DNA of 53,708 nucleotides from a virus. Its lineage: Duplodnaviria > Caudoviricetes. The translations under genes and the position numbers were made by a program. The notes beneath the pieces are model-generated. The model searched no databases and had not been told where the DNA came from. It worked only from the letters and a program-made list of their open reading frames with translations. Shown one piece after another: positions 478 through 14,656 of this stretch. The DNA lies in the IMG/VR virus record IMGVR_UViG_3300021519_000013, positions 1 through 53,708 of that record; one strand, given 5' to 3'. The stretch's first letter is position 1. Every line of letters starts with the position of its first letter.

Positions 478-483
478 TAATAC

Positions 484-560: not shown

Positions 561-563
561 TAT

Positions 564-638: not shown

Positions 639-641
639 TTA

Positions 642-706
642 GTTGATCTGGATACACAGGCCGGTGGAGATACCGCTTTAGAAAGTGTGTCGCAATGCCA
701 GACAAC
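642..706 (+). ncRNA. Unnamed structured RNA in tRNA spacer
   Basis: Nested pairings GTTG/CAAC, TCTG/CAGA, GATACAC/GTGTGTC, CGGT-GGAGAT-ACCG. Confidence 0.45.
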
Positions 707-740
707 ATTCGAGACAACACGTGAGTCTTAGCCGATTTTA

Positions 741-814
741 GGGAGTCATAGCAGTGGGTTCTGCATAGAAAGATCCAAACTTTTGGTAAGGGTTCGAGTC
801 CCTGACGCCCGCCA
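741..814 (+). ncRNA. Degenerate tRNA-like element (possible CCA/Trp anticodon)
   Basis: GGGAGTC/GACGCCC (one mismatch), D stem GCAG/CTGC, AAAG-ATCCAAA-CTTT, AGGG-TTCGAGT-CCCT, G-CCA end. Confidence 0.6.
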
Positions 815-821
815 TAATAAC

Positions 822-898
822 GCCTCCGTAGCTCAACTGGATAGAGCGGCGGTCTTCGAAACCGTAGGTTGGGAGTTCAAATCTCTCCGGGGGCGCCA
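822..898 (+). tRNA. tRNA-Arg(TCG)
   Basis: GCCTCCG/CGGGGGC, GCGGT-CTTCGAA-ACCGT, CCA. Confidence 0.95.
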
Positions 899-1495
899 TT
901 AATCAGCAGCAGGGTCTGTTATAACAATGGTATTTCCGCGACGCATGATATTGTTCTCAGTTTCTAGGTCATCTAGATTAAATGGTTGTGTTGTCAGATC
1001 ATATAGTTGAGGGAAGTTCTTCTTTAAGAATGGTTGATTGGACTTAGCAAAAACTTTTTTTATAACAGTTCCCATATGCTTCGATGTGGGCTTGGGATCT
1101 ATGTATTTCGTAAAGATTGAATCGTCTTCTATTGGCTGCAATTGTTCCATTCTAACTGCATAAGCAGTGGCGCTTAGTTTAATCATCTTACCTCTTAACT
1201 TGGGAACGAATGGATTGGACTGATTGGCCATGATGTAGTTTAGATATTGCTTATATCCCACATCATCATGTGAGAATATTTTTAACACATAGTTAAATTT
1301 AGGATTTTCGTAAACTGCGGCATAGATACCGTGACCAGCTGGTCTCCATCCTAACTTTTTCAACTGTTTAGAAAGATTATCAAATTCAGCAGGAGAATAA
1401 GAATTATCCCAGATGTCATCAGGCTTTGCTGCAAATGTTTGTGCAGCTTTAAATGCTGGATGCTTTTTTGCACCTACTAGTTCACTTATTCTCAT
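899..1495 (-). CDS. T7 gp0.7-like Ser/Thr protein kinase (probable start MRISELVG)
   Basis: Gly-rich loop GHGIYAAVY, VLKIF lysine, DLETENNIM catalytic-loop-like segment, ITDP. The longer listed start overlaps tRNA-His. Confidence 0.65.
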   Translation of the reverse strand: MRISELVGAKKHPAFKAAQTFAAKPDDIWDNSYSPAEFDNLSKQLKKLGWRPAGHGIYAAVYENPKFNYVLKIFSHDDVGYKQYLNYIMANQSNPFVPKLRGKMIKLSATAYAVRMEQLQPIEDDSIFTKYIDPKPTSKHMGTVIKKVFAKSNQPFLKKNFPQLYDLTTQPFNLDDLETENNIMRRGNTIVITDPAAD

Positions 1496-1509
1496 ATGTT
1501 TATTTATTT

Positions 1510-1583
1510 GCTGTCTTAGTGTAATGGAAGCACAGGAGTTTGTGGAGCTCCTAGCACAGGATCGATACCTGTAGGCAGTACCA
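1510..1583 (+). tRNA. tRNA-His(GTG), lacking G-1
   Basis: GCTGTCT/AGGCAGT, GGAGT-TTGTGGA-GCTCC, A73, CCA; T at -1; T loop ATCGATA. Confidence 0.9.
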
Positions 1584-1584
1584 C

Positions 1585-1613
1585 TTGACAACGGTTAGAT
1601 AAATGTATATAGT
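1585..1613 (+). promoter_or_regulatory. Sigma70-type promoter for downstream tRNAs
   Basis: TTGACA-N17-TATAGT. Confidence 0.75.
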
Positions 1614-1621
1614 AACAACAT

Positions 1622-1706
1622 GGGGAAGCGGCGCAGTTGGAGAGGCGCGGAGGACTGTAAATCCTTTCTGTACGGTGAGTTGGTTCGAATCCATCTTTCC
1701 CCACCA
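1622..1706 (+). tRNA. tRNA-Tyr(GTA)
   Basis: GAGGA-CTGTAAA-TCCTT, long variable arm, CCA. Confidence 0.93.
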
Positions 1707-1714
1707 TTAACCCC

Positions 1715-1810
1715 CAGGCGGGCTGGACGACTCTGAATCGTTCCAACAGAAAAAGCCTTCCTGATAGCAAAGGGTACAACTCGGCAGCTTAATAAGCGGA
1801 GCCCTTTGCT
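1715..1810 (+). ncRNA. Two adjacent unnamed stem-loop RNAs (1715-1763, 1766-1810)
   Basis: CAGG/CCTG, GGCT/AGCC, GGACGA-CTCTGAA-TCGTTCC; AGCAAAGGGT/GCCCTTTGCT with inner GCTT-AAT-AAGC. Confidence 0.45.
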
Positions 1811-1818
1811 TCTTATAC

Positions 1819-1900
1819 GCACCGGTACCAAAATGGGAATGGGGCGGTCTGCAAAACCGCTGCGAAAGTGGAGTAGGTTCGATTCCTACCCGGTGCTCCA
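1819..1900 (+). tRNA. tRNA-Cys(GCA) with extended variable arm
   Basis: GCACCGG/CCGGTGC, GCGGT-CTGCAAA-ACCGC, U73, CCA; 12-nt variable region. Confidence 0.92.
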
Positions 1901-1905
1901 TTATT

Positions 1906-1981
1906 GCCGCCAGGGAGGTCTTGGCGATTTCACTGCTCTCATAAGGCAGATAACCAGGTTCGATGCCTGGTGGCGGCACCA
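1906..1981 (+). tRNA. tRNA-Met(CAT), elongator (Ile2 not excluded)
   Basis: GCCGCCA/TGGCGGC, CTGCT-CTCATAA-GGCAG, CCA. Confidence 0.85.
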
Positions 1982-1990
1982 TAGCTAACT

Positions 1991-3136
1991 ATGAACATGG
2001 ATAACTTTTGCCCAGCACCTTGGATGTCTATGTTCTGTCAAATTGATAGAATTAGCGTATGTTGTGCCAATGGTGATAATCTTAAAATGTCACCCAACGA
2101 ATTTAGATCCAGTGACTATCTAAGTAATCTAAAAGCACAGTTTTTAGCAGGCGAAAAACCTAAAAGCTGTAATGGATGTTGGACTCGAGAACAAGCCAAT
2201 CTTATAAGCATAAGGTCACACTACAAGAATAACTTTCCAAAATATACTCGTGAGTTTTTCAATGAGCACACTGAGTTGCCTGTTGAACATATGGAATTAC
2301 GCACCAGTAACTTATGTAATTTCCAATGTAGAATGTGTCATCCAAAAAATAGTGTTGAAATTGCCAGAGAATTTGAAGATAACACTGAACTTCAGAAATA
2401 CTTTAAACCACAACCAAGCTCCATTATGGAAACTACCTCAGAGGATTGGAGTGAGATATTTGATATCAGTTTGGAAACAAAGCGTTTGTTTTTAACAGGT
2501 GGTGAGCCTCTTCTTATAAAACAGTATTACGATTTGTTAGATCATTTAATATTAAACAACAGATGCGAAACAACAGTATTGGATATCTACACCAACTGTA
2601 GTGTATACAATCCTAAATTTATGGATCGCATTGCTCAATTTAAAAGAGTAAAATTTAACCTTAGTATTGATGCTGTTGGTAAGGTTGCAGAGTACCAAAG
2701 ATATGGCACAGTTTGGAATACTGTCGAGGAGAACGCTTTAAAGTTTTGCAGTTTTCCTAATATATTTCCCGCAATACAAACTACAATAACTGCATACGCA
2801 GTACTGGGAATTTCCTCACTTGCAGATTTTTATTTGCAAATGTTAGAAAAAAATAGTAAAATGCAATTCATGGTACATGTGGCATACAATCCTAAAGGTA
2901 TTAACCATATGAACCTACCTATTGCCTTAAAGGAACAAGCAATAGAACAAATTGATTTGGCAGTGTCAAAATTAACGGCAAAGCCATTTGATACAGTGCG
3001 TGGTGAATTTCAATCAATTAAAAAACAACTACTGAACAATACAGATACAGATGTTGATTTTATTCACTTGACTAGAACATACGATCAATCAAGAAATCAG
3101 AAGTTTGAAGACGTTTTTAATTTCAAGCTTTACTAA
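1991..3136 (+). CDS. Radical SAM protein with N-terminal twitch/SPASM-like Cys domain (alternative start 1997)
   Basis: CNFQCRMC (CxxxCxxC), TGGEP, N-terminal CPAPW...CC...CxxC. Confidence 0.9.
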   Translation: MNMDNFCPAPWMSMFCQIDRISVCCANGDNLKMSPNEFRSSDYLSNLKAQFLAGEKPKSCNGCWTREQANLISIRSHYKNNFPKYTREFFNEHTELPVEHMELRTSNLCNFQCRMCHPKNSVEIAREFEDNTELQKYFKPQPSSIMETTSEDWSEIFDISLETKRLFLTGGEPLLIKQYYDLLDHLILNNRCETTVLDIYTNCSVYNPKFMDRIAQFKRVKFNLSIDAVGKVAEYQRYGTVWNTVEENALKFCSFPNIFPAIQTTITAYAVLGISSLADFYLQMLEKNSKMQFMVHVAYNPKGINHMNLPIALKEQAIEQIDLAVSKLTAKPFDTVRGEFQSIKKQLLNNTDTDVDFIHLTRTYDQSRNQKFEDVFNFKLY

Positions 3137-3153
3137 TAAGTTAAATAGTTTAT

Positions 3154-3230
3154 CCGTGTGTGGCTCAGCTTGGTAGAGCATCTGGTTTGGGACCAGAGGG
3201 TCGGGAGTTCGAATCTCTCCACACGGACCA
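3154..3230 (+). tRNA. tRNA-Pro(TGG)
   Basis: CCGTGTG/CACACGG, TCTGG-TTTGGGA-CCAGA, CCA. Confidence 0.95.
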
Positions 3231-3235
3231 TCATT

Positions 3236-3311
3236 ATCGGTGTAGTGTTAATGGTTAGCACGATGGTCTCCAAAACCACAAGTCTGGGTTCGAATCCTAG
3301 CACCGGTGCCA
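3236..3311 (+). tRNA. tRNA-Trp(CCA)
   Basis: ATCGGTG/CACCGGT, TGGT-CTCCAAA-ACCA, G73, CCA. Confidence 0.93.
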
Positions 3312-3320
3312 AAATAAAGT

Positions 3321-3349
3321 TTGACTTTTGTCAAATGAACATATATAGT
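3321..3349 (+). promoter_or_regulatory. Sigma70-type promoter
   Basis: TTGACT-N17-TATAGT upstream of tRNA-Val. Confidence 0.7.
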
Positions 3350-3362
3350 AATAATAAGTTAT

Positions 3363-3438
3363 GCGGGATTAGCTCAGTGGTAGTAGCGTCTGCTTTACAC
3401 GCAGAATGTCGGGAGTTCGACCCTCTCATCCCGCACCA
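3363..3438 (+). tRNA. tRNA-Val(TAC)
   Basis: GCGGGAT/ATCCCGC, TCTGC-TTTACAC-GCAGA, CCA. Confidence 0.95.
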
Positions 3439-3449
3439 CTTATACCAGT

Positions 3450-3525
3450 GCCTTTATAGCTCAGCTGGTAGAGCAACTGATTTGTAATCAGTAGGTCCCG
3501 AGTTCGATTCTTGGTGGAGGCACCA
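3450..3525 (+). tRNA. tRNA-Thr(TGT)
   Basis: ACTGA-TTTGTAA-TCAGT, CCA. Confidence 0.95.
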
Positions 3526-3527
3526 GA

Positions 3528-3603
3528 GCCCGATTAGCTCAGTTGGTAGAGCAACTGATTAGTAATCAGTAGGTCGGCGGTTCGAATCCGTCATCGGGCA
3601 CCA
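3528..3603 (+). tRNA. tRNA-Thr(AGT)
   Basis: GCCCGAT/ATCGGGC, ACTGA-TTAGTAA-TCAGT, CCA. Confidence 0.93.
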
Positions 3604-3614
3604 TTTCTTTTTAT

Positions 3615-3691
3615 TGCGGGGTAGAGCAGTCCGGTAGCTTGACAGCCTCATAAGCTGTAGGTCGTTGGTTCAAATCCAACCCCCGCTTCCA
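3615..3691 (+). tRNA. Initiator-like tRNA-fMet(CAT)
   Basis: U1xU72 mismatch, GCGGGG/CCCCGC, A11:U24, ACAGC-CTCATAA-GCTGT, CCA. Confidence 0.85.
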
Positions 3692-3692
3692 A

Positions 3693-4013
3693 TTATATCA
3701 TATGTGCTTTAAGTAAACTCTTGAGTATAGGATCTTCACCATATCGCATTACAGCATACTCAACATCCAGTATTAGATCCTTTAGTACAACATCAAACCA
3801 TTCGCCATTGGTCTTATGCATCTTAAGATGACGATGTATGACAGTTTCCAGAAGTTTTGTCTTGCAAATATCAGTAGCTTTGCTATAATGCAACTGTAAT
3901 GGAAATGGGTAGCCAGTTTGAAGGCTCTTTAGTCTTTTGGCAGGATCTCGACTAATCCCTACCTTGTAAGGTGGATTATCACTGCCTATAACATAGATGT
4001 AACTGACTGACAT
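3693..4013 (-). CDS. GIY-YIG / T5orf172-family nuclease-like protein
   Basis: YIYVIG...YKVGISRDPAKRLKSLQTG...E..IH...GEWF. Confidence 0.85.
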   Translation of the reverse strand: MSVSYIYVIGSDNPPYKVGISRDPAKRLKSLQTGYPFPLQLHYSKATDICKTKLLETVIHRHLKMHKTNGEWFDVVLKDLILDVEYAVMRYGEDPILKSLLKAHMI

Positions 4014-4059
4014 AGTGGTATTATTTATGGTCTACCACGTGTTATAATTAATATAAAGG

Positions 4060-4299
4060 ATGGCAGTAATGTTGCTTTGGTTTCTTATTATTATATCCGT
4101 TAATTCCAATGGCACTGTTAATGCAGCTTTGGAATACCCAACCAGCTATCGATTCAATAGTGAATCACATTGCGAAACAAACGGTCGCAAGAAGGTTAAT
4201 GAACTACAAATGGAATTGGGTACAAAAAACAGTAAACTGTTTTACATCTGCAAACCACTTGATGTCAAGGAAGTAGCCAAGATGTTACCCCCAAGTTAA
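4060..4299 (+). CDS. Small hypothetical exported/membrane protein
   Basis: AAGG RBS, hydrophobic N-terminus, two Cys. Confidence 0.6.
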   Translation: MAVMLLWFLIIISVNSNGTVNAALEYPTSYRFNSESHCETNGRKKVNELQMELGTKNSKLFYICKPLDVKEVAKMLPPS

Positions 4300-4306
4300 A
4301 TAAAAT

Positions 4307-5479
4307 ATGGCAAAAAAACTTACGATATTAGGCAAAGGAATGGCTGGTAGCTACACTGCCAGCCATTTTGCCAGACACAGTGATCTTGAAATTGATCTAT
4401 ACTTTGATCCCAATACTAGAGTACAATCTATAGCACTCAGTGGCAATATTAATTTGCCCATTGCCATGGATAAAAATGCTCGAATTAATTACTCACATTT
4501 GCCATTATTTGATGGCACATTTAAAATGGGTGTAACAAAGTTGAACTGGGGCAATGGCGAGCCACTTGGAAGTTGGTTTCGTCCAGGTATAACATCCTAT
4601 CATTTTTCAGGGGAAGGGTTGCAGAACCTAATACTTGATCAACTGGGCAACAGGATAAATGTTATTCCGCAACGTGTGGACATTAACGATATTGATTCAG
4701 ACTTTATAATGGATTGCACTGGCAAACCCACTGATCCTGATAAATTGATATACCTTAATGAAAAGGAAGATAGTATTCCTGTTGATAGTGTATTGATTAT
4801 TGATTGTCCATGGGATTTTCCAATTTACAATACTACGCATTCCGTCGCAAGACCATATGGATGGGTATTTGCTATACCATTAGCCAGTAAGATGAGCGTT
4901 GGATATCTATATAACAAAAGCATTAATACACTCGACGAAGTTAAAGAGGATATAAAGGAAGTCTTTAAGCAACTCGCAATTACTCCCGGTGATAAATCTG
5001 TTTCTTTTAGCTTCGATAGCTATTACCGAAAACAGAACTTTACAGGCCGCATTGCTTATAATGGGAATCAGTCTGCTTTCCTTGAACCACTTGAGGCAAC
5101 ATCAATTTGGTTAATGACTTTCAATCAGTTGGAGGCAATGGAAGTGTGGCTCAATAACAAACCCATTGATGAGGCAAATAAGCTTTATCAATCCAAGGTT
5201 GCAGGTATTGAAACCTGTGTAATGTTGCATTACTTTGCTGGTAGTATATTTGACACTGACTTTTGGCGCTTTGCCAAAGAACGATCTGAAAGACATATGC
5301 GTAATGCAATTAAAAATCCAGAGTTTCAACTTGCGCTGCGACAGATTGCCACAACCAATTTGAATAACCCTGGTGATGTTGGCATTAATGAAAAATACGG
5401 ACATTGGGCCATAACAATATGGGGAAACCATTTTAAAAAATGGGGAATCTTTGACAAATTAAAAAAATTATACGTTTGA
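4307..5479 (+). CDS. Short tryptophan-halogenase-like flavoprotein
   Basis: GKGMAG, GTFKMG lysine, GWVFAIPL, FLEPLEA. Confidence 0.8.
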   Translation: MAKKLTILGKGMAGSYTASHFARHSDLEIDLYFDPNTRVQSIALSGNINLPIAMDKNARINYSHLPLFDGTFKMGVTKLNWGNGEPLGSWFRPGITSYHFSGEGLQNLILDQLGNRINVIPQRVDINDIDSDFIMDCTGKPTDPDKLIYLNEKEDSIPVDSVLIIDCPWDFPIYNTTHSVARPYGWVFAIPLASKMSVGYLYNKSINTLDEVKEDIKEVFKQLAITPGDKSVSFSFDSYYRKQNFTGRIAYNGNQSAFLEPLEATSIWLMTFNQLEAMEVWLNNKPIDEANKLYQSKVAGIETCVMLHYFAGSIFDTDFWRFAKERSERHMRNAIKNPEFQLALRQIATTNLNNPGDVGINEKYGHWAITIWGNHFKKWGIFDKLKKLYV

Positions 5480-5499
5480 TATCCACAATAAATAAACGC

Positions 5500-5994
5500 A
5501 TGTACATAAAGTATTTGGAGTATCCGCCGGTTCCTAATGAACTGCTACCTCCCATTGATCAAATTATTAATAGTAAAAAGATGGATATTCCACATTGTGG
5601 CAATGTAGATCCAAATGATGTGTTTAATAGTTTTAGTACAAGAACATTATCAAAAGAACTGGATCATTGGATTACAGACACGTTCAAATGTCAATATTAT
5701 GCCAACTATCAAATATTAATTGGCAATAATCCTATCCATATTGATTTGCAACATTTTCCAGGAGCTAGAATAGTTGCGTTTAACTATCTACTGGATCAGG
5801 GTGGCGATAATGTTATAACAACTGTATATGACAAAGATCATGCAGTATTACAATCGGAGAGAATAGATCTACACCGTTGGCATATGTTAAGAACAAGCAT
5901 GCCACATAATGTCATGGGAATAGAGCCTGGAAAAATTAGAGTTGCATTAAGTGTAACACCCATAATGCATCCCAAAGGCAATAAGAATGCTTGA
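5500..5994 (+). CDS. Hypothetical, probable cupin/2OG-Fe(II) dioxygenase fold
   Basis: PIHID (HxD), distal PHNV His, RVALSV; ATG 5 nt after TAAATA. Confidence 0.5.
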   Translation: MYIKYLEYPPVPNELLPPIDQIINSKKMDIPHCGNVDPNDVFNSFSTRTLSKELDHWITDTFKCQYYANYQILIGNNPIHIDLQHFPGARIVAFNYLLDQGGDNVITTVYDKDHAVLQSERIDLHRWHMLRTSMPHNVMGIEPGKIRVALSVTPIMHPKGNKNA

Positions 5995-7216
5995 TGAGGA
6001 AATCAAAGCGGCTCGCAATGGCTGCTATTATTATAATGGCAAGGTATACTTTCTCAGAGAAGATGCATTTGAGGACATGCTTGCCAATAAAGAATATGAC
6101 AGTAAGTTAAAATTTTTATTCAATGATCATATATTTTCCAAGTTGAATTGGTCCATTGAGCCGGATGTTAATTTGGATATATTGTATAAAATTAGAGCAC
6201 AGCAACTTAGAGACAAATACAAGTATCTAATATTAGGGTTCAGTGGCGGAAGTGATAGTACTCAAATTTTAGAAACATTCCTCAAGAATAATATTTTCAT
6301 TGACGAAATTCAAACTGCACACAATGTTAAAATGTCACGTGGCATAGATCAACAAGTGCTAATGTCAGACCCTGATCTAAATTTATTTTTGGAATATGAT
6401 CTTGCAGTGGAACCCATGCTTAAAAAAGTAAAGCAACTTAGTCCCAATACAAAAATTACAGTCATTGATAGTTCTGACTTTTTGCATCAGGAAATTCAAA
6501 AAAAGTCATACAAGTTTTTATCTATTGGCACAGGAAAAGAAAAAGGCATATCTCAGAGACTAACATCAACCATGGGCATTTCCATTGCACAGTATTATCT
6601 TTATAAACAACTAAATGTTTTTGAAAGTAAAGACAAGGATAATGTAGCAATTATAAGAGGCATTGAAAAACCACAGTTGTCGGTTGTTGATGGTAATCTA
6701 GTATTTCATTTTAATGACTTGTCGTTGTTGTCCATATCACAAATGTTTGCGGGCACACTTGATCCTACCTATACCATGGAAGATTTCTTCTGGTCGCCTG
6801 ATGCACCACTTATTCCCATAAAACAAAGTCACCTTATTAAAAAATGTCTTGAATCGGATAAAAATTTCCTAACATTTTTTCTGGAACAAAAATCGGAATT
6901 CAATGAATATTTCAAAAGTAATAAACTGGAATTGTCAAGACCCAAAGCAATAATGCTTGAGCGTTCATATAATTCCATAATCTATCCAGACTGGGATACA
7001 CGAACATTTGTTGCCCCAAAATCAACAACTGACATACCTGAGTTGAAACTATATAGTAAGGTAGTGGGGAAGCATAATACATATGGTGCGCTCAAAGATA
7101 ATTTAAAATACGTGGAATCACATTGGGGGAAACTTACCAATACAAGCCAACTATTAAAGAATCTACAGAGTAGGCCCTACAATTTAGGAGTACTAAATCT
7201 AAAATGTTTAACATAA
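5987..7216 (+). CDS. PP-loop (adenine nucleotide alpha hydrolase) ATP pyrophosphatase-like protein
   Basis: LILGFSGGSDS motif. Confidence 0.7.
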   Translation: MLDEEIKAARNGCYYYNGKVYFLREDAFEDMLANKEYDSKLKFLFNDHIFSKLNWSIEPDVNLDILYKIRAQQLRDKYKYLILGFSGGSDSTQILETFLKNNIFIDEIQTAHNVKMSRGIDQQVLMSDPDLNLFLEYDLAVEPMLKKVKQLSPNTKITVIDSSDFLHQEIQKKSYKFLSIGTGKEKGISQRLTSTMGISIAQYYLYKQLNVFESKDKDNVAIIRGIEKPQLSVVDGNLVFHFNDLSLLSISQMFAGTLDPTYTMEDFFWSPDAPLIPIKQSHLIKKCLESDKNFLTFFLEQKSEFNEYFKSNKLELSRPKAIMLERSYNSIIYPDWDTRTFVAPKSTTDIPELKLYSKVVGKHNTYGALKDNLKYVESHWGKLTNTSQLLKNLQSRPYNLGVLNLKCLT

Positions 7217-8124
7217 AAACTTTAATACTATCATTGGGATTGTATGCAGCAACACACACTGCTATGGCTGCCGAACAGGTAGTTATATACTCAAGATTTG
7301 TTGCCAATCAAGAATTTGGTATCATGAATCAATTCATTGCCGATGAACTTAATAAGATGCAAACAGATTATGAATTTAGAACCGCAGTGATTGCCGGTTC
7401 ACAAGGCATTGCGGCTGAATTGAGGGCATTAGCAGCCGTAAAAGAAGGTAAAAAAGTTCTTGTCGCTGGGACAATTAGTAACTTTACATTTAATAGATAT
7501 TTTAATCCTGAAACACCCAATCAACCAAACGTATTTGAGCCTGTGATTAACTTGGTGAGTCTTCCCGCTGGAATTCTTGTTAGTCCATCCAGCAATATTA
7601 ATTCAGTGGATGAATTAGTAAGCTATTTGAAAAGTAAGCCTGTAGCGTATAGAGCAACCAGTCTTGGTGCTATAAGTCATACATTTTTAGATTTAGTTTT
7701 TAGAAAGTACAAGGGTATAACAAATGTCAAGGATCTACAATATCCAATTAAAGAGATACCGCGTAACATACTAACAGGTGAAGCAGATTATACACTGTCG
7801 TCAATTGAAGGAAATGACCAATTGCTTAAGCCTATACTGATAACCAGTGGCGTAAAAAATAAAAAATATGCAAATATACCAACGGCAGATTCAGTTGGTA
7901 TGCCGGATCTGTTACCAGTTACGGCTTCTTTATTATATGTGCCAGTTGATCAACCCAAGTTATCAATTGATCTAAAGGATATGCTTCTTAAAATATGCCA
8001 AAACTCTAAATTTAGTGAACTAGCAGATAAATTTGATATGGATAGAGATTGTGTCATTGATGGGCAACAGTTATCTGATACAATGAATAAGCATCAAAAT
8101 TTTATTTTAAAGTACAAAGATTAA
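7204..8124 (+). CDS. TctC/Bug-like periplasmic substrate-binding protein
   Basis: Signal peptide; GSQGIAA, FEPVINL, NINSVDELVSYLK, NIPT..SVG Bug-family pattern. Confidence 0.65.
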   Translation: MFNIKTLILSLGLYAATHTAMAAEQVVIYSRFVANQEFGIMNQFIADELNKMQTDYEFRTAVIAGSQGIAAELRALAAVKEGKKVLVAGTISNFTFNRYFNPETPNQPNVFEPVINLVSLPAGILVSPSSNINSVDELVSYLKSKPVAYRATSLGAISHTFLDLVFRKYKGITNVKDLQYPIKEIPRNILTGEADYTLSSIEGNDQLLKPILITSGVKNKKYANIPTADSVGMPDLLPVTASLLYVPVDQPKLSIDLKDMLLKICQNSKFSELADKFDMDRDCVIDGQQLSDTMNKHQNFILKYKD

Positions 8125-8693
8125 TAATTTAAACTCAAGCCAAATAAAATACTATGACGGTTATTGTTGGATCTATTAAATCCCTCGTGCCAAGAATCAT
8201 GCATATTAGCGGCCAGCCAACCTTTCCCCCATCCTGTAGTCATTCTAATGGGGTTATTGTAATGCTGGTCTGTGTAAAATATAGTGCTTTGCTGTGGATC
8301 ATCTCCTGTAATTAGATAACACATACCGGCAGCAACAAGCATACGACTATCAAGATGTATTGCAGTATTATGCCCTGGCTTGTCCAGCACTGGAGTACAG
8401 ATTGTTTTGGTGATGTTTTTCATTTCATTTGGGGACTTGGCCCAATAGCCAGCAAACAATGGCTCTGAATATAGAACATCAACTATTGTATTTTTAAATT
8501 CAACAGTGAAAAAATAATCAACTAATGACTTAAAAGCTGGATCCTTGACAGAATTTAATACGGATCTTAAATTAAAATCAGTCTGTCCATATGCAACTTC
8601 ATTTGTTACCCAATCCTCATTGGTAATATCAAATTTTGGTATGTTAAAATCAACTTCAAATACAAAATCACGCTGCTTATTAAATGTTAACAT
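8121..8693 (-). CDS. Putative 2OG-Fe(II) dioxygenase-like protein
   Basis: DKPG...IHLD, SWHEG, RHSILF (HxD...H...R). Confidence 0.6.
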   Translation of the reverse strand: MLTFNKQRDFVFEVDFNIPKFDITNEDWVTNEVAYGQTDFNLRSVLNSVKDPAFKSLVDYFFTVEFKNTIVDVLYSEPLFAGYWAKSPNEMKNITKTICTPVLDKPGHNTAIHLDSRMLVAAGMCYLITGDDPQQSTIFYTDQHYNNPIRMTTGWGKGWLAANMHDSWHEGFNRSNNNRHSILFGLSLNY

Positions 8694-8735
8694 CCAATAT
8701 TTATTGGGGCAAAATGTTCTAAATAAATATTGCAA

Positions 8736-9185
8736 GTGGAATACATTTTTTGCTTTACTGCTTGGACGTTATTGATTTATTGGACACATAGGCTTGCTCA
8801 TGTGATTCCCATAATGAACTCGTGGCATAGAGATCATCACAGTCAAGTGTCAAATGGTACCTATAAAGGACTACACTGGACAAACCTATTTTTGTTTTTT
8901 GATAGTTGGCGTAGTACCGCAGATCAATGGGCAACTGAAGTTGTCCCCACACTACTTTTTGCCGCCATTACAGATGAATGGTGGATTGTTGCTTTTTATT
9001 ATATATGGGCAGCATTTATTCAAGAAGCGATAGAACATAATCACACATTTAACATATACCCATTTTTAACAAGCGGACAATGGCATCTAATTCATCACGA
9101 AAACAATGAAAAAAACTTTGGAGTATTTGTTCCCATATGGGATATATTGTTTGGGACCTATGAGACAGTAAATGACAACACATAA
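8736..9185 (+). CDS. Sterol desaturase / fatty acid hydroxylase family membrane protein
   Basis: His boxes HRLAH, HRDHH, HLIHH; NFG..WD.LFGT. Confidence 0.85.
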   Translation: MEYIFCFTAWTLLIYWTHRLAHVIPIMNSWHRDHHSQVSNGTYKGLHWTNLFLFFDSWRSTADQWATEVVPTLLFAAITDEWWIVAFYYIWAAFIQEAIEHNHTFNIYPFLTSGQWHLIHHENNEKNFGVFVPIWDILFGTYETVNDNT

Positions 9186-9990
9186 TAATTGGATGACGCA
9201 TAACTTAAGTGAACGTTTCAATAACAAAAATGAACCTTTTGTTGTTGACCTACATCCCTATCAATTTACATCAATGAATTTTAGCGAAGCTTCTGATTAC
9301 ACCGCCAAGCTAATATATCAAAAATATTCCAAAATATTCTTAAGTTTTAGCGGAGGATTGGATAGTGATTATGTGTTTCATGTGTTTAAAAGGAATAACA
9401 TACCGTTTGATCCTATAATTGTTAAAACATCAGGCAATGCACTTGAAATGAAGTATGCGTTGCACACATGCAAAAAATTTGATGTGACTCCCATAATTTT
9501 AACTTTGGATGACCATGAATACTTGTCTTTCCTTGATTTACAAGTAATTGGGGAAATATCTGGCAGTGGTCTTTGTGCAATTCCTGGAATATTTGCATGT
9601 GAATATGCCAAAGCAAATTCCGGTATTTGTGTTATTGGCGAACATATGATTGACAATGATGATGAATCAATATTTCCTGGCATGAACGAATGGGATTTTT
9701 ACAATGAGGTCTTTGTGGGTGAGGAGCACAATGTTCCATTTTTCAATTATACTGTTGAGCTTACAAATGCCATGCTAGAATCCATGAACAATGATACAAT
9801 TGATGAATGGAAACATAAGCTTTACAATCTAACATATAGACCCATTATTGATTACCAATTTGATACAAAGTTTCAAATGATAAAGTATACCATGTTTAAA
9901 AAACAAAAACAAAGACCAGTGAATCACTTTGATCCAGGGAGTAAAGAACAGCTACTATCATTGTTTAGTAGGTTTAAAATTGATAAATAA
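9172..9990 (+). CDS. Second PP-loop ATPase-like protein
   Basis: IFLSFSGGLDS motif. Confidence 0.65.
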   Translation: MTTHNNWMTHNLSERFNNKNEPFVVDLHPYQFTSMNFSEASDYTAKLIYQKYSKIFLSFSGGLDSDYVFHVFKRNNIPFDPIIVKTSGNALEMKYALHTCKKFDVTPIILTLDDHEYLSFLDLQVIGEISGSGLCAIPGIFACEYAKANSGICVIGEHMIDNDDESIFPGMNEWDFYNEVFVGEEHNVPFFNYTVELTNAMLESMNNDTIDEWKHKLYNLTYRPIIDYQFDTKFQMIKYTMFKKQKQRPVNHFDPGSKEQLLSLFSRFKIDK

Positions 9991-10011
9991 TTCAGTAAAG
10001 GATTAACTGCC

Positions 10012-10509
10012 ATGAGTTTTGCTTACACATTGATTCAAACAGTACAAAAAACATCAGACAAGGGTTGGACTGCTGTTATAATGGGTAATATTACCAATAC
10101 ATATAGTTCAACTGTTGATTCAAGAGATGATCTTTGTTCTAATAGACCCGAAACATTAGCAAAGGCAGTTTCAGATTTTATGCTTGTATTGGATCCACCT
10201 CAGTTTCCTGTAAATTTTGATGGTAAACCTTGGGAATTCAAAAAACTTTGGGATAGACGCTGGGTAGATGACAATACCTTACAATTTTTAAATTATTTTG
10301 ACTCACTACAAGATGCTCAAAATTGGTATCTAAATTGGTTTTCCAGACCATTTGTTCCATACACATCAGGATATTATAATACAAGTTGGCAGATTGTTGA
10401 TGGTGAAGGCAACCAACATCCCTTGCCTGAAATTACTTTTGAATGGAAACGTTCAAAAGAATTTGTTGATCCTGAATTTACCCCAGGATTGAATCCCAAT
10501 TTAATTTAA
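10012..10509 (+). CDS. Hypothetical protein
   Basis: TAAATA promoter, AAGGA RBS, 165-aa ORF. Confidence 0.7.
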   Translation: MSFAYTLIQTVQKTSDKGWTAVIMGNITNTYSSTVDSRDDLCSNRPETLAKAVSDFMLVLDPPQFPVNFDGKPWEFKKLWDRRWVDDNTLQFLNYFDSLQDAQNWYLNWFSRPFVPYTSGYYNTSWQIVDGEGNQHPLPEITFEWKRSKEFVDPEFTPGLNPNLI

Positions 10510-10537
10510 TTGACATTTATAAAAAGACATATATAAT
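10510..10537 (+). promoter_or_regulatory. Sigma70-type promoter
   Basis: TTGACA-N16-TATAAT before tRNA-Asn. Confidence 0.7.
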
Positions 10538-10552
10538 GACATAATAGTTCGT

Positions 10553-10628
10553 TTCCCGATAGCTCAGTTGGTAGAGCATTCGACTGTTAATCGAATGGTC
10601 CTAGGTTCGAGTCCTAGTCGGGGAGCCA
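10553..10628 (+). tRNA. tRNA-Asn(GTT)
   Basis: TTCGA-CTGTTAA-TCGAA, G73, CCA. Confidence 0.95.
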
Positions 10629-10632
10629 CTAA

Positions 10633-10706
10633 GCGGGTATGATGTAATGGCAGCCTGAAACCTTGCCAAGGTTTACGCAGCGGTTCGATTCCGCTTACCC
10701 GCTCCA
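10633..10706 (+). tRNA. tRNA-Gly(GCC)
   Basis: GCGGGTA/TACCCGC, AAACC-TTGCCAA-GGTTT, U73, CCA. Confidence 0.95.
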
Positions 10707-10724
10707 CTTTTATAGGATTCGCCA

Positions 10725-10865
10725 CAACCACTACGTTGGAATCAGATGGGAGATGGTCACCTGTCCCAAAGTATGTTGTGCCTCTTGTACATTGTTGTTA
10801 TGACCGAAACAATGTATCGCAGGATGAGGGCGCTACTATCGAGTAGCAGGCTGGCGGAGTGGTTG
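10725..10865 (+). ncRNA. Unnamed multi-stem structured RNA (about 140 nt)
   Basis: Closing CAACCACT/AGTGGTTG; arms TGGGA/TCCCA, CCTC..TACATTGTT/AACAATGTA..GAGG, GCTACT/AGTAGC. Confidence 0.6.
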
Positions 10866-10908
10866 AGACCCACAACTTAATTCACTTAGGTTTAGCAACG
10901 TCATCGGT

Positions 10909-10933
10909 AGCCTCCCCGCAAGGGAGGTTTTCT
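10909..10933 (+). terminator. Intrinsic terminator
   Basis: GCCTCCC-CGCAA-GGGAGGT followed by TTTCT. Confidence 0.65.
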
Positions 10934-10981
10934 ATTGATCAAGTATTTGACAGCATAATTACTGCTAAGGAAGGCTTTTCA

Positions 10982-12454
10982 ATGATTAATCAACAGTACA
11001 ACATCGCACAGAGAATTCTCGCCGAACTACAGAAAGACGCAAACAGAGTCGTATTTGAAACCAAGCGTGGTCCAATGACAGCTGGTAGGTTTGCCAACAT
11101 GATCATCAGCTTTGGCATCCATCTACAGCATCGCGGGGTTGTTCAAGGCAGCGTTATTGGATTAGACTGTGTACATGGACCTGTTGGATTTGCACTGACA
11201 TTAGCATCAACATTGAATGGTGCCACATGGGTAAATGTGAACAAAGCAATACTTAATGCCAAGTTACATATGGACATTGTTGTACATAACACTCCAAAAG
11301 AGATTATCGGAGCAAATGTACATAAGATTACACCAGAGTGGTTTAAAGCTCCAGAAGGATTTAAGCCTCCAGTCACATTCCCCGGGTATAAGACAGAAGA
11401 TGATATCTGGATGGTTGCTCAGAGCAGTGGCACAACTGGCAGTATTAAGTTCATGCCAATTACCTACAAGCAGTGGTTTGCTAGAGCAACTGACTTAGAA
11501 CGTCGTAAGGTACGCTTCCCTGGCAAGCACGGCCAGTTCTGTAGCTTGTTTCATCCATTAAAAAGTACAAGCCAAAGCGATGTGCAAGCAGCCGTGCTAA
11601 ATGGCACTAAGGTACTTCTAACATTTCCATCATACGATGATATGCGAACAGTTAAAGATCTCGTTGTAATGGGATCACTTAGCCAGATGGAGTTTACAAT
11701 TAAGGATGCTGCTGAGCCTACTACACCAATCGATACTTCAATCAATTTAAATGGCAGCGCAGTAAGCGCACAGCAGATTGATCGCTTCCTAAGATACTTC
11801 AAGTCAGTATGGGTTGAGTATGGCGCAACTGAGACCACAAAGACGGCAATGAAGCCCATCACAGAAGCAGGCACATACAACGGATCAGTTGGCGCTATCT
11901 TACCAGGTACTGAGTATCGCATTATTGACGATGAGGGTAACGATGCAGAAGAAGGGCAGTTGCTATTAAAAACTGAGGGAATGATCACTGGCTATATCAA
12001 CGAACCAGAACTAACAGCAGCACACTTTATTGATGGATGGTTCTACACGGGAGACATTGCTTCATATATCAATGGCGAATTGTTTCTCAAAGGTCGTCAG
12101 TCTGATAGTTTAAATATTGGTGGTGTCAAGATTGACCCTGCCAAGATTGATGCTGTACTCAAAGAAGTACCAGGTATCAAGGATGCTATAACATTTCAGA
12201 ATCCAGAGTTTCCCACATACAATCAATTACAGGCATTGATTGTCGCTGATGGTGATCACAAGATAATTGGGGATGCCGCTGCCGCTGCCATGATGGAAAA
12301 ATTTGGAATTACACGCTTACCACGTAGAGTGTTCTTTGTCAATAGCATTCCACAGAACGAGAATGGCAAACCTATGCGTAAGGAAGCAGCAGAGTTAGTT
12401 AAAGGGAAGGAGCCTGTTGTAATCATCAATTATAAGCCACAGGGTAAAGAATGA
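10982..12454 (+). CDS. Adenylate-forming (ANL / acyl-CoA synthetase-like) enzyme 1
   Basis: SSGTTGSIK, YGATE, GWFYTGD, GR..D.LNIGGVK, PQNENGK; RBS AAGGAAGG before ATG 10982. Confidence 0.9.
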   Translation: MINQQYNIAQRILAELQKDANRVVFETKRGPMTAGRFANMIISFGIHLQHRGVVQGSVIGLDCVHGPVGFALTLASTLNGATWVNVNKAILNAKLHMDIVVHNTPKEIIGANVHKITPEWFKAPEGFKPPVTFPGYKTEDDIWMVAQSSGTTGSIKFMPITYKQWFARATDLERRKVRFPGKHGQFCSLFHPLKSTSQSDVQAAVLNGTKVLLTFPSYDDMRTVKDLVVMGSLSQMEFTIKDAAEPTTPIDTSINLNGSAVSAQQIDRFLRYFKSVWVEYGATETTKTAMKPITEAGTYNGSVGAILPGTEYRIIDDEGNDAEEGQLLLKTEGMITGYINEPELTAAHFIDGWFYTGDIASYINGELFLKGRQSDSLNIGGVKIDPAKIDAVLKEVPGIKDAITFQNPEFPTYNQLQALIVADGDHKIIGDAAAAAMMEKFGITRLPRRVFFVNSIPQNENGKPMRKEAAELVKGKEPVVIINYKPQGKE

Positions 12455-13929
12455 TAAATCAACAATTTAACATCGCTTTTGACCTGTTTAAGTTTCTCAA
12501 TGAGAACCCAACACATATCTGTTTTGAAAGCGATCATGGCACAGTTAAAGGCAAGGAATTTGCCAATTTAATAACTGTGTTTGGCTTACAGTTACTAGTG
12601 CGTGAAGTAAAGCCCCGTGAACTAATAGGGTTAGATATTGACGATCCCATCATTGCTCATGTCATGACACAGGCAATAACTGCTATCGGTGCCAGTTGGA
12701 TCAAGATATCACAGCAAGCATTGGAAGCAGAGTTACCAATTAAGCATGTGATATACAATACCAAGCGCATGTATCATGGTGCCAGTGTTCATAAGATTGA
12801 TCAGTCTTGGTTTAAGGAACCTAATGGTCTCACAAATGACATGCGTATACGTGGCTACAAAGATCCTGATGATATTTGGATGATTGCTCAGAGCAGCGGG
12901 TCGACTGGTCTACCTAAATTTATTCCCATCACATATAGACAGTATTGGCATCGTGTGTGGGACATGAACATCAACATGTTTGATCGTCGCATTGAATATT
13001 TCTTCACAACATTCATGCCACTAAAGACCAGCGCACAGTATCACACTATCGCCGCCATCGTGAAGAAGATAACAGTATTGGTTGACATGATGCCTGATAA
13101 GGTAGTAACATATCCTAAATTATTCATGTTAGGCAGCATCATGCAGACACATAAGTTTGTCGGTCTGTTGGATGAACCCGCAGTACCTTATGATGTTGAT
13201 AGCGAGTCAGCTGGTGCTGCTATGAGCAAGAAGGACCTCGAGAAGTTCCTAAAGTATTTCAAGATCGTTCAGAGCAATTATGGATCAACTGAAACAACAA
13301 GAACATTTCAAAGTCGTTACACAACTGTAGATGAATATGTCGGTGACATTGGCCGAGCATTGTTAGATGATATCGTAGCAGAAATTGTTGATGACAATAA
13401 TCAACTAGTTGACGTTGATATTGTAGGTAGCATCCGTTTGAAAACTACACCGCGGCATGTCACTGGCTATTACAATGACCCCGAAGAAACTGCTGAGAAG
13501 TTTAAGACGGGTTACTTCTACCCAGGTGATCTTGCTCGCAGAGATGCTGCTGGTAAGATATTCATTGCTGGACGTAAGAATTCAGCAATGATCAACATCG
13601 GCGGCATTAAGTTGGATCCTGTAACAATCGAAGATGCAGCCCGCAAAGTTCTCGGTCTTAAAGATTGCTTGGTGTTCAAGAACACTGCTATGTCGATGGA
13701 TCGGCAATTGAATATGTTGGTTGTTGCTGATGAAGATGACAGAGAACGTGTGATGTATGCCATAACTGACAGCATTGCTAAAGAGATGGGTATCAGTCAT
13801 GTGCCACAAGCACTTTACTTTATCGATTCCATTCCATTAAATGACAATGGCAAGCCGTGGCGCAGTGCTGCGGAAAAGATTGCTGAAAAGTTAGAACCAA
13901 TTACAATAACACTTGACGAGATTAGATAA
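12451..13929 (+). CDS. Adenylate-forming enzyme 2 (paralog)
   Basis: SSGSTGLPK, YGSTE, GYFYPGD, PLNDNGK. Confidence 0.9.
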   Translation: MINQQFNIAFDLFKFLNENPTHICFESDHGTVKGKEFANLITVFGLQLLVREVKPRELIGLDIDDPIIAHVMTQAITAIGASWIKISQQALEAELPIKHVIYNTKRMYHGASVHKIDQSWFKEPNGLTNDMRIRGYKDPDDIWMIAQSSGSTGLPKFIPITYRQYWHRVWDMNINMFDRRIEYFFTTFMPLKTSAQYHTIAAIVKKITVLVDMMPDKVVTYPKLFMLGSIMQTHKFVGLLDEPAVPYDVDSESAGAAMSKKDLEKFLKYFKIVQSNYGSTETTRTFQSRYTTVDEYVGDIGRALLDDIVAEIVDDNNQLVDVDIVGSIRLKTTPRHVTGYYNDPEETAEKFKTGYFYPGDLARRDAAGKIFIAGRKNSAMINIGGIKLDPVTIEDAARKVLGLKDCLVFKNTAMSMDRQLNMLVVADEDDRERVMYAITDSIAKEMGISHVPQALYFIDSIPLNDNGKPWRSAAEKIAEKLEPITITLDEIR

Positions 13930-13950
13930 TTAATATACTATATAGATAAT

Positions 13951-14027
13951 GCGCTTGTGATGGAATTGGTATACATACCAGTCTTAGAAACTGGGTCTTG
14001 CAGGTTCAAGTCCTGCCAGGCGCACCA
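13951..14027 (+). tRNA. tRNA-Leu(TAG), short variable loop
   Basis: CCAGT-CTTAGAA-ACTGG, variable GTCTT, A73, CCA. Confidence 0.9.
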
Positions 14028-14037
14028 TCTATGTACT

Positions 14038-14114
14038 GCCCTGGTGACGGAATTGGTATACGTATCTGACTCAAAATCAGAGTTTTGGGGGTTCAAGTCC
14101 CTCCCGGGGCACCA
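14038..14114 (+). tRNA. tRNA-Leu(CAA), short variable loop
   Basis: TCTGA-CTCAAAA-TCAGA, variable GTTTT, A73, CCA. Confidence 0.9.
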
Positions 14115-14121
14115 AGAATAC

Positions 14122-14211
14122 GGAAGAGTGGCCGAGTGGTTGATGGCTCTAGTCTTGAAAACTAGCATACCTGCAAGGGTATCGTGGGTTCGAATCCTAC
14201 CTCTTCCGCCA
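14122..14211 (+). tRNA. tRNA-Ser(TGA)
   Basis: CTAGT-CTTGAAA-ACTAG, long variable arm, G73, CCA. Confidence 0.95.
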
Positions 14212-14217
14212 TTTTAT

Positions 14218-14293
14218 TGGGGATTAGTTCAGTTGGTAGAACGCCAGACTCTGAATCTGGATGTCCGAGGTTCGAATCCTTGATCCCCAGCCA
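14218..14293 (+). tRNA. tRNA-Gln(CTG)
   Basis: TGGGGAT/ATCCCCA, CCAGA-CTCTGAA-TCTGG, CCA. Confidence 0.95.
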
Positions 14294-14309
14294 ATATTAG
14301 GAGAGTGTA

Positions 14310-14498
14310 ATGTTTAAAATTGTTAAGCAAAATAAAAAGCAAGCAATCATAAATGGAGACAATCAAGTTCTCTATACACCTCCACAGTTCATTGCATTTA
14401 AAGGATATGATCTTAATAAACTCCTAACTGCAATGAATAAAAAGGGTTATAGAGACATTGAAGATGTTATCGCATTTGAAAGTGGAAAACTCAAGTGA
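14310..14498 (+). CDS. Hypothetical protein
   Basis: AGGAGA RBS, 62 aa. Confidence 0.7.
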   Translation: MFKIVKQNKKQAIINGDNQVLYTPPQFIAFKGYDLNKLLTAMNKKGYRDIEDVIAFESGKLK

Positions 14499-14656
14499 CA
14501 GAAATTGATTTAACAAAGATACAATTAACTTGGTGCCTGGACATCCTTTCCCGAGTCAAGAATATACTTGATTCAAAAGGCTGGACAGACGATCAAAAAC
14601 TCGTTAGTATCGATTGGTTAGTAAAGCAAGCACTCAAAGTAGAAAGAGAAGAATGA
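14495..14656 (+). CDS. Small hypothetical protein (53 aa, absent from ORF track)
   Basis: GTG overlapping the upstream stop (GTGA), open to a TGA overlapping the purT ATG (ATGA). Confidence 0.6.
   Translation: MTEIDLTKIQLTWCLDILSRVKNILDSKGWTDDQKLVSIDWLVKQALKVEREE

Follow-up and report, generated by a model that had tools for sequence, protein, structure and literature searches.

The enzyme-rich span of approximately 12 kb at positions 1991-13929 of the IMG/VR virus record IMGVR_UViG_3300021519_000013 is very probably a mosaic of cargo cassettes set among tRNA genes, within which lies a conserved, virus-specific core. The record, a 53.7-kb phage fragment (53,708 nucleotides) with an estimated completeness of 15%, was analyzed over its full length and is referred to here as the window. 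The core occupies approximately positions 5500-10509 and consists of two PP-loop proteins (PP1 and PP2), a TctC-type solute-binding protein and a small membrane hydroxylase (FAhyd), together with the oxygenase-like accessories o172 and o204m and a short halogenase-like flavoprotein. An earlier note, made from the letters of this DNA, had listed radical SAM, halogenase-like, dioxygenase-like, PP-loop, hydroxylase, TctC-like and adenylate-forming ligase genes in this span, and these classes are indeed present with family or fold support (Table 1).

Comparison with the close relatives of the window's lineage, namely L006 and L017, which lie on one contig, and L018, carries this reading. The tRNA genes, a GIY-YIG-like gene, a pair of ANL adenylate-forming ligase genes and the genes downstream match these relatives at 74-100% nucleotide identity. 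Positions 3321-3693 are matched in L006/L017 at 86%, the GIY-YIG-like gene is 87-89% identical in L006 and L018, the ANL1 protein is 89-90% identical in L017 and L018, and ANL2 is 88% identical in L017 and 66% in L018. Essentially no DNA match was found in L017 and L018 for positions 1991-3136, 4060-8979 and 10012-10495 or for a PurT gene, the only match in these stretches being 200 bp inside PP1 that align to L006 at 75%. The unmatched DNA comprises the radical SAM gene, the block from the small open reading frame (ORF) sm79 to o204m, o165 and PurT. The core proteins of L006/L017 are 31-56% identical to those of the window (PP1 43%, TctC 31%, o172 46%, FAhyd 52%, PP2 56%) and stand in a different order, and the same contig carries a different radical SAM protein of 563 aa, a GDSL-like gene and a methyltransferase gene. 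The interval of L018 from the GIY-YIG-like gene to the ANL pair (2058-6517) holds genes for a PstS-like protein, GT2 and GT4 glycosyltransferases, a metallophosphoesterase and a TonB_C protein, and no core genes.

ARAGORN predicted 22 tRNA genes in the window, ten of them before position 1991, six at 3154-3691, two at 10553-10706 and four at 13951-14293. These genes both surround and interrupt the 1991-13929 span, in agreement with the earlier description of an island inside a tRNA array, and an Rfam search over positions 1-16000 gave significant matches to tRNAs only. The tRNA arrays of large phages are general hot-spots for cargo. Because cassettes turn over between the relatives and the array contains a GIY-type gene, possibly a mobile gene of the homing-endonuclease type, the array reads as a landing pad for interchangeable cargo and not as a substrate.

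The core was followed across viruses by searching IMG/VR with an alignment of PP1. Among the 599 pattern matches listed, at least 465 encode a PP1 relative; 80 loci were kept, and a pass with ORF calls and hidden Markov models (HMMs) identified a PP1 ORF in 77 of them. PP2 was present in 33 of these 77 loci and an FA_hydroxylase gene in 19, in 16 of which it lay no more than two ORFs from PP2. A radical SAM-like ORF was found in eight of the 77, a halogenase-like ORF in two and an ANL ligase in none. Many genomes carry two or three PP1-TctC pairs and a short PP1 paralogue ahead of FAhyd-PP2. The PP1 profile matched 1,740 representative clusters (50% identity) at E 0.001 and 907 at 1e-30, and PP1 occurs in jumbo phages (285-357 kb) as well as in T4-like myophages; a scan of 185,579 species genomes, restricted to a single sequence pattern, gave three PP1 loci. 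Database relatives of the core proteins are unnamed or labelled 'hypothetical', and no published study of the core module was found in the literature. Altogether, the core is a widespread, unnamed, virus-specific module of which two sub-blocks, PP1 with TctC and FAhyd with PP2, survive the synteny test. The earlier idea of an undescribed phage pathway is borne out to the extent that the core has neither a family name nor a literature, but the single pathway that it implied is not.

That single pathway would make the whole of 1991-13929 one biosynthetic gene cluster with a single product. It draws on the tight packing of the genes on one strand with overlapping stop and start codons, and on the occurrence of all of the enzyme families in natural-product clusters. 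The overlaps are confirmed at 5987/5994, 7204/7216, 9172/9185 and 12451/12454, with the TctC start overlapping the PP1 stop by 13 nucleotides (nt) and the PP2 start overlapping the hydroxylase stop by 14 nt. Against it stand the independent presence and absence of cassettes in the close relatives, the rarity or absence of ANL, halogenase-like and radical SAM-like genes in the PP1 loci, and the two tRNA blocks, perfect promoter match and terminator-like hairpin that split the span. For most of the span, genes occur independently and shuffled in relatives, and the single-cluster reading, already largely refuted by this synteny, is highly improbable.

The genes at the two ends of the span illustrate this independence. 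None of the 12 fetched loci with relatives of the radical SAM gene hold PP1, PP2, TctC or FAhyd, and eight of the 12 are arrays of at least four radical SAM paralogues; the gene is a separate cassette, outside the core module. Relatives of this N-terminal-twitch radical SAM protein form tandem arrays of 4-8 paralogues on other viral contigs (L020-L027), and radical SAM cassettes are mentioned for the hypervariable island of pelagimyophages in the available part of PMC7029224.

At the other end, a sigma-70 consensus is matched at 12 of 12 positions (TTGACA, 16 nt, TATAAT) at 10510-10537, right after the o165 stop codon and 16 nt before tRNA-Asn, and a terminator-like hairpin lies at 10909-10929. 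Between them, 3' of tRNA-Gly, is a non-coding element of approximately 230 nt that is 81-86% identical among the window (10707-10940), L017 (5774-5987) and L018 (1646-1963). The element has a predicted multi-stem structure with compensatory change in seven pairs, has a terminator-like hairpin at its end in two of these three relatives, lacks an Rfam match and may be a small phage RNA. The promoter match and the terminator-like hairpin around tRNA-Asn, tRNA-Gly and this element separate the ANL pair from the core. ANL1, which probably starts at 10982 (490 aa), and ANL2 are paralogues of approximately 36% identity, both above the PF00501 cut-off of 29.9 bits. The solved enzymes closest to them are oxalate-, malonate-, fatty-acyl- and 4-coumarate-CoA ligases (E 1e-13 to 1e-21), and neither reached an NCBIfam equivalog model. 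The ANL pair belongs to the backbone of the lineage, outside the core, to which it is tied only as a neighbor in this lineage.

Downstream of the array, positions 14614-15798 encode a PurT-type formate-dependent glycinamide ribonucleotide transformylase (NF006766, 516.5 bits). Since L017 and L018 have no protein match and almost no DNA match to it, PurT seems to be a cassette peculiar to this phage. Like the radical SAM gene and the ANL pair, it forms a unit of its own. An RnlA-type RNA ligase is encoded at 17215-18474, a few kb 3' of the tRNA array (PHROG 562, E 2.5e-70).

Within the core, the class of PP1 and PP2 was assessed through AlphaFold2 models built from family alignments (predicted local distance difference test scores of 90.3 for PP1 and 96.2 for PP2). 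In a VIA-align structure search of these models against 48,161 representative chains, asparagine synthetases took the top ranks for both: 9b6c (Z 11.4, 297 aligned residues) and 1ct9 (Z 11.2) for PP1, and 9b6c (Z 13.8, 244 of 272 residues aligned) and 1ct9 (Z 13.7, 244-245 aligned) for PP2. The next three scores (Z 9.5, 9.4 and 8.8 for PP1; 12.0, 11.6 and 10.7 for PP2) belong, taken together, to beta-lactam synthetase, carbapenam synthetase and TsnB9, followed for both models by NAD and GMP synthetases, LarE, TilS and QueC. The S, G, G and D of the SGGxDS motif are invariant in both families, and identity to solved AsnB-class chains is 7-13%. A Foldseek search of the PP1 model against the PDB gave nothing at E 0.001, its weak rows being NAD synthetases and AsnB-class enzymes, and the PP1 profile against PDB sequences returned either nothing or one chance match to KsgA (E 0.011). 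Close matches in a predicted viral structure library were all labelled 'uncharacterized protein, uncultured Caudovirales phage', and PP1, PP2, o172 and o165 fit no named Pfam or NCBIfam family.

Both proteins align to asparagine synthetases only from about residue 118-125, which indicates that the glutaminase domain is absent, and no catalytic Cys follows the initiator Met at either start. By analogy, PP1 and PP2 would be AsnB-type PP-loop amide ligases without a glutaminase domain, and the models suggest that they may activate a carboxylate by adenylation and then join it to ammonia or an amine. Proteins in which PP2 is naturally fused to PP1 (651-689 aa) occur (P0003, P0032, P0100 and P0114).

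The likeness to AsnB, human ASNS, beta-lactam and carbapenam synthetases and TsnB9 lies in the SGGxDS motif and in a fold shared over most of the length. PP1 and PP2 differ from that class in having no N-terminal glutaminase and no PF00733 match, and in being virus-specific, present as several paralogues per genome and sometimes fused. They have the superfamily fold and the PP-loop in common with TilS, QueC, TtuA/NcsA and MnmA, but the structural scores are lower and no family model is significant. Three other assignments were tried and rejected: QueC-type deazaguanine synthesis, for which there is no QueD, QueE or FolE and the scores are low; a PseA-type sugar amidotransferase (8wex, Z 5.7 against PP1 and 6.7 against PP2); and PAPS reductase/DndC, with Z of approximately 6-8 and no family match.

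These scores also bear on tRNA modification, which the earlier note had proposed among other roles. In this explanation, the PP-loop proteins would act like TilS, QueC or thiolases on the neighboring phage tRNAs. The location of the island in a tRNA array speaks for such a role, as do the PP-loop motif and the marginal Pfam matches obtained at E 5 among 19 PP1 family members (ATP_bind_3 in four, best E 0.05; QueC in two, best E 0.051). Of the 80 kept loci, 60 were scanned with their flanks for tRNA genes near PP1: at least five were found in 12 loci, three of which share one array, one or two in six, and none in 38, and tmRNA genes were predicted a few kb from PP1 homologues in four (L060, L062, L063 and L065). 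The loci rich in tRNA genes and those with a tmRNA gene count in favor of a tRNA role. The absence of a nearby tRNA gene from 38 of the 60 loci and the position of the module beside structural genes in T4-like phages argue against tRNA modification, as does the structural ranking, in which TilS (Z 6.7-7.3 against PP1, 8.6-9.2 against PP2) falls below the asparagine synthetases and QueC reaches Z 6.0-7.8. Additionally, no tRNA-binding domain was identified in PP1 or PP2, inspection of PP2 by eye showed no cysteine cluster (C100 being the only invariant Cys of the PP2 family), PP1 is steadily accompanied by solute-binding or transport proteins, and the array itself contains a GIY-type gene along with cassettes that vary from one relative to another. 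We consider modification of tRNA or other nucleic acid very improbable.

The partner of PP1 in the window is a TctC-type protein, probably from the TTT (tripartite tricarboxylate transporter) family. Its PF03401 score is below the cut-off of 27 bits, and PP1-adjacent relatives score above it (38.8 bits in L010, 113.5 in L011 and 165.6 in L069). Among solved TTT proteins, the window protein matched the AdpC-type 5oei (E 9.4e-5) and the terephthalate-binding 8hk9 (E 2.1e-4). A simple heuristic for a hydrophobic N-terminal stretch (at least nine residues), which is not a trained predictor, found a signal-type N-terminus in 32 of 34 TctC-like proteins, the other two being over-long ORF calls, and the alignment has small-residue motifs ahead of the mature part; the TctC-like protein is thus predicted from its signal-type sequence to be exported.

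By HMM, a TctC-type ORF adjoins PP1 in 38 of the 77 loci, and a Pfam scan of 48 of the 84 unlabelled PP1 neighbors added TctC in five more loci and DctP in four more. The DctP pairing also occurs in L012 and L014, and at least 47 of the 77 loci have a carboxylate-binding protein of the TctC or DctP type next to PP1. Seven viral DctP-like binding proteins of the TRAP type in PP1 loci were inspected (L012 11436-12413, L014 505-1461, L057 6902-7855, L072 9132-10088, L078 3455-4411, L093 9037-9993 and L098 4091-5047), and six of them lie directly beside a PP1 paralogue. On a 317-kb phage contig (L098), a full-length TctA gene (101.9 bits) starts 3 nt past the PP1 stop codon, within a row at 434-6448 of PP1, TctA, a 276-aa protein with a signal-type N-terminus, the DctP-like protein and a major facilitator superfamily (MFS) transporter, after which come two methyltransferase genes and another PP1. 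No TctA gene was found in the window, within its 15% complete record, or in four of five large phage records with PP1, which makes the binding proteins mostly orphans; the TctC-like proteins may use the TctA/TctB permease of the host. A complex prediction of PP1 with mature TctC, run without controls, scored 0.00 and has no weight on either side of the question of binding.

Exported TctC-like proteins of another class were observed in L005 (7186-8148), L008 (12056-12979), L009 (15265-16224) and L010 (13411-14403). In L005, L009 and L010 it is paired with two genes for 2-oxoglutarate (2OG)-Fe(II) oxygenases (PF13640 and PF13759), beside the neck genes of T4-like relatives.

Precedents for a binding protein without a permease gene are found among the orphan TTT proteins Bug, AdpC and TphC, which the window protein resembles in its matched structures, its signal N-terminus and its enzyme neighbor with no permease gene in the window. 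It differs from them in being phage-encoded and highly divergent, and in being paired with a PP-loop ligase and not with a catabolic enzyme. According to the consulted part of PMC5812351, orphan TctC genes often adjoin enzymes for the carboxylated ligand, and in binding proteins of tripartite ATP-independent periplasmic (TRAP) transporters a conserved arginine salt-bridges the ligand carboxylate. For SUP05 viruses, the portions of the literature consulted mention a tctA domain match only.

Cyanophage PstS is a virus-supplied periplasmic phosphate-binding protein that plugs into the host permease and raises uptake during infection. Its analogy to the TctC-like protein is functional only, as PstS belongs to another protein family, binds another ligand and has no dedicated cytoplasmic enzyme partner.

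Because PP1 accompanies TctC, DctP, TctA and an MFS transporter, and because its fold is that of a carboxylate-amidating class, the simplest model for the module is the capture of an acid followed by its ATP-dependent amidation. We put this forward tentatively, at somewhat short of an even chance, and infer the chemistry, the ligand and the sharing of one substrate. In this model, the exported binding protein would capture an organic acid in the periplasm and hand it to a TTT-type permease, supplied by the host in most phages and by the phage itself in the one with its own TctA. In the cytoplasm, PP1 and PP2 would adenylate its carboxylate group or groups with ATP, and replacement of the AMP by ammonia or an amine would give an amide trapped in the cell. 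PP2, the hydroxylase and the oxygenase-like accessories could then tailor the same molecule. In a broader form, which seems to us possible yet rather doubtful, this would be a widespread phage 'capture-and-amidate' system, in which every AsnB-type ligase lacking the glutaminase has a carboxylate-binding protein of its own, exported or, in one clade, cytoplasmic, and the pairs multiply and diverge within genomes.

Several observations weigh against capture followed by amidation. Neither PF00733 (Asn_synthase) nor any other PP-loop model matched PP1 or PP2 at E 0.01, PF00733 also failed to match family members at E 5, and its six-frame search of the window found nothing, with 11 of 14 control genomes matched by the same model; since no PP-loop family model is significant, the chemistry assigned to PP1 and PP2 comes from the fold. 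All seven of the inspected DctP-like proteins lack a signal peptide and start at the mature domain, which does not fit capture in the periplasm. The 12 PP1 loci that sit in tRNA arrays count on the same side. Enzymes of the FA_hydroxylase family are embedded in membranes and have lipids as substrates. Elsewhere among the PP1 loci are genes for FA_desaturase, an LpxO-type Asp_Arg_Hydrox protein, a GDSL lipase and NMO/FabK-like proteins, which point to a lipid or envelope substrate, and in the T4-like relatives L005 and L010 the module adjoins the neck genes gp14 and gp15.

The last of these observations, namely the membrane lipid-enzyme hydroxylase, the lipid-type genes and the neck-gene position, make envelope remodelling a serious rival. 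The ligases would amidate envelope carboxylates, such as those of an aminolipid, a uronic-acid glycolipid, lipopolysaccharide (LPS) sugars or a peptidoglycan precursor, and the hydroxylase and 2OG oxygenases would hydroxylate the same molecule, the change of surface blocking superinfection or the loss of progeny on debris. In bacteria, AsnB-type enzymes amidate the meso-diaminopimelate of peptidoglycan and the uronic acids of O-antigens. The coupling of FA_hydroxylase to PP2 in 16 loci speaks for this rival, as do porin and CsgF genes in other PP1 loci and the glycosyltransferases and TonB_C protein of L018, which lie upstream of the ANL pair in the corresponding stretch of the array. In the accessible part of PMC7029224, the gp14/gp15 position in pelagimyophages and cyanomyophages is described as a hypervariable host recognition cluster with LPS genes, and a non-syntenic island with radical SAM cassettes is placed at the same position; the main text of that paper, supplements aside, does not contain the words PP-loop, asparagine or tricarboxylate. 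The module of the T4-like relatives shares this position, together with collagen-repeat and large structural genes, but that of the window lies in the tRNA array of a jumbo phage instead. Envelope remodelling gives no role to the near-constant TctC or DctP partner or to the TctA and MFS proteins of L098, and PP1 and PP2 match no lipid- or sugar-specific family, the sugar amidotransferase scoring low against both. We regard it as unlikely, at a level that still calls for its being weighed with the acid-capture model.

The genes around the module in L005 and L010 include, beside the collagen-repeat and large structural genes, P4H-type 2OG oxygenase genes, and these bear on another explanation, the tailoring of a peptide or protein. 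Here the module would mature a ribosomal peptide or decorate virion fibres, with AsnB-type amide or isopeptide formation as in lasso-peptide cyclases combined with hydroxylation, halogenation and radical SAM chemistry. The radical SAM genes of the eight PP1 loci, of the SPASM or twitch type and in L010 placed between two PP1-TctC pairs, would suit such a role, and so would sm79, which closely precedes the halogenase-like gene. The module is not accompanied by any conserved small ORF, sm79 has no Pfam or PHROG match and no relative in L003-L013, and no protease or leader-recognition family was found among the ORFs scanned. To our knowledge, solute-binding partners are not a feature of peptide-tailoring pathways. 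This explanation is improbable, and acid capture with amidation remains the model that we prefer.

The other genes of the core are accessories of varying constancy. The FAhyd sequence contains HxxxH and HxxHH boxes, and of its 49 short relatives (122-156 aa) 48 have PF04116 on record. The earlier note had also described two HxD...H dioxygenase-like proteins, of which o204m is supported by a predicted 2OG fold and o172 by a weak lead only. Neither has a Pfam match, and alignment by hhalign of both with the 2OG oxygenases of related loci gave probabilities below 1%. The viral Atlas cluster of o204m, which probably starts at 8693, has 464 members, and a homologue adjoins PP1-TctC in L061. In o172, which probably starts at 5500, H88, D90, H144 and R155 are invariant in an alignment of three sequences only; an Atlas search gave weak, feature-level leads to PF13640 and PF05118 clusters, homologues lie beside PP1 or in the same locus in L007 and L006, and a small 2OG/cupin-type oxygenase is possible. 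Homologues of o165, which had no family match in Pfam, NCBIfam and PHROG scans, lie 3' of PP2 or of a PP1 paralogue in L006, L043, L044, L046 and L054.

The halogenase-like gene is an accessory that is rarely with the core. Its PF04820 match is limited to profile positions 200-404 of 458, the C-terminal half, and the protein matches Trp halogenases in the PDB at E 3e-14 and is approximately 120-145 residues shorter than the solved ones. GxGxxG is present at residues 9-14 and a Lys aligns at the 'FK' position, and the WxWxIP motif reads W-V-F-A-I-P, the second Trp being lost. No relative was found in IMG/VR by the pattern method. A full-length flavin-dependent halogenase, a VirX1 homologue (6qgm E 5.8e-145; PHROG 2928 E 1.6e-154), is encoded amid tail-fibre-type genes at 27824-29428 on the minus strand, and the short protein is 23% identical to it.

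Table 1. Coordinates of the features in and around the core, with the matches that identify them
Feature	Position	Strand	Basis or remark
N-terminal-twitch radical SAM protein	1991..3136	+	NF033640 264 bits (cut-off 170); PF04055 34.4 bits (cut-off 29.5)
Six tRNA genes (Pro, Trp, Val, Thr, Thr, Met)	3154..3691	+	ARAGORN, Rfam; split the span
GIY-YIG-like T5orf172/MUG113 protein	3693..4013	-	PF13455 E 3.5e-13; PF10544 E 1.4e-9
sm79, 79-aa ORF	4060..4299	+	Hydrophobic N-terminus, signal-peptide-like by eye
Short halogenase-like flavoprotein, 390 aa	4307..5479	+	PF04820 E 3.2e-22; PHROG 2928 E 3.3e-54
o172	5476..5994	+	'HxD...H' protein; possible small 2OG/cupin-type oxygenase
PP1, PP-loop protein (SGGSDS)	5987..7216	+	AsnB-type synthetase fold
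TctC-type (TTT family) solute-binding protein	7204..8124	+	PF03401 24.1 bits, under the cut-off
o204m	8121..8735	-	Predicted 2OG-Fe(II)-oxygenase fold; Atlas structure TM 0.73-0.79 to PF13640 clusters
FAhyd, small membrane di-iron hydroxylase (FA_hydroxylase)	8730..9185	+	PF04116 56.7 bits (cut-off 31), profile 2-132 of 132
PP2, PP-loop protein (SGGLDS)	9172..9990	+	AsnB-type synthetase fold
o165	10012..10509	+	No family match
Transcription unit: promoter match, tRNA-Asn, tRNA-Gly, structured element of ~230 nt, terminator-like hairpin	10510..10940	+	Consensus match, ARAGORN, alignment
ANL1 adenylate-forming ligase	10859..12454	+	PF00501 69.4 bits
ANL2 adenylate-forming ligase	12451..13929	+	PF00501 50.4 bits

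The element that carries the island is a jumbo myophage of lake and freshwater metagenomes. Downstream of the island, PHROG matches identified sheath, fibre and other structural proteins, and a tail-sheath-type protein at 25248-26672 is 30-34% identical to the sheaths of the jumbo phages Phosso, PA5oct-like phages, Atu_ph07 and SCTP-2. PP1 relatives of approximately 84% identity occur on contigs of up to 369,816 bp. In searches against cultured phages, megablast with the island matched tRNA genes only, and tblastn with PP1, FAhyd and TctC against 50,697 phage records gave nothing at E 1e-3. An 827-aa protein with a weak amidoligase match (PHROG 2443, E 9e-6) is encoded at 20904-23387.

The sequencing runs in which island DNA was found carry the labels lake water, freshwater or aquatic metagenome (24 rows, 14 studies), and at least half of the sampled island words were present in two of those runs, one of which may be the source. 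Contigs of a second study cover the island piecewise with zero differences. Diverged halogenase-like, o172, TctC-like and o204m genes, with 6 to 35 differences per 445-879 bases, were found in runs X3 and X4, which come from two studies and are possibly one data set because their figures are identical. Run X12 has no contig over 4401-10450 and no bridging contig, which says nothing on presence or absence. The joints listed, with sides of less than 30 letters inside tRNA genes, were taken as cross-matches of tRNAs. No RNA runs were listed among those that contain island DNA.

The pairing of PP1 with carboxylate-binding and transport proteins provides a testable handle on what these phages draw from their hosts or alter in them. 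If the envelope reading is true, the module would represent a new chemistry of surface conversion. In the broader form of capture and amidation, infected cells would draw specific organic acids out of the water and retain them as amides, a kind of viral metabolic hijack that would be new as a class. If capture and amidation is true, it would add a carbon- and nitrogen-scavenging route to the auxiliary functions of viruses and would bear on the use of dissolved organic matter in lakes and other waters.

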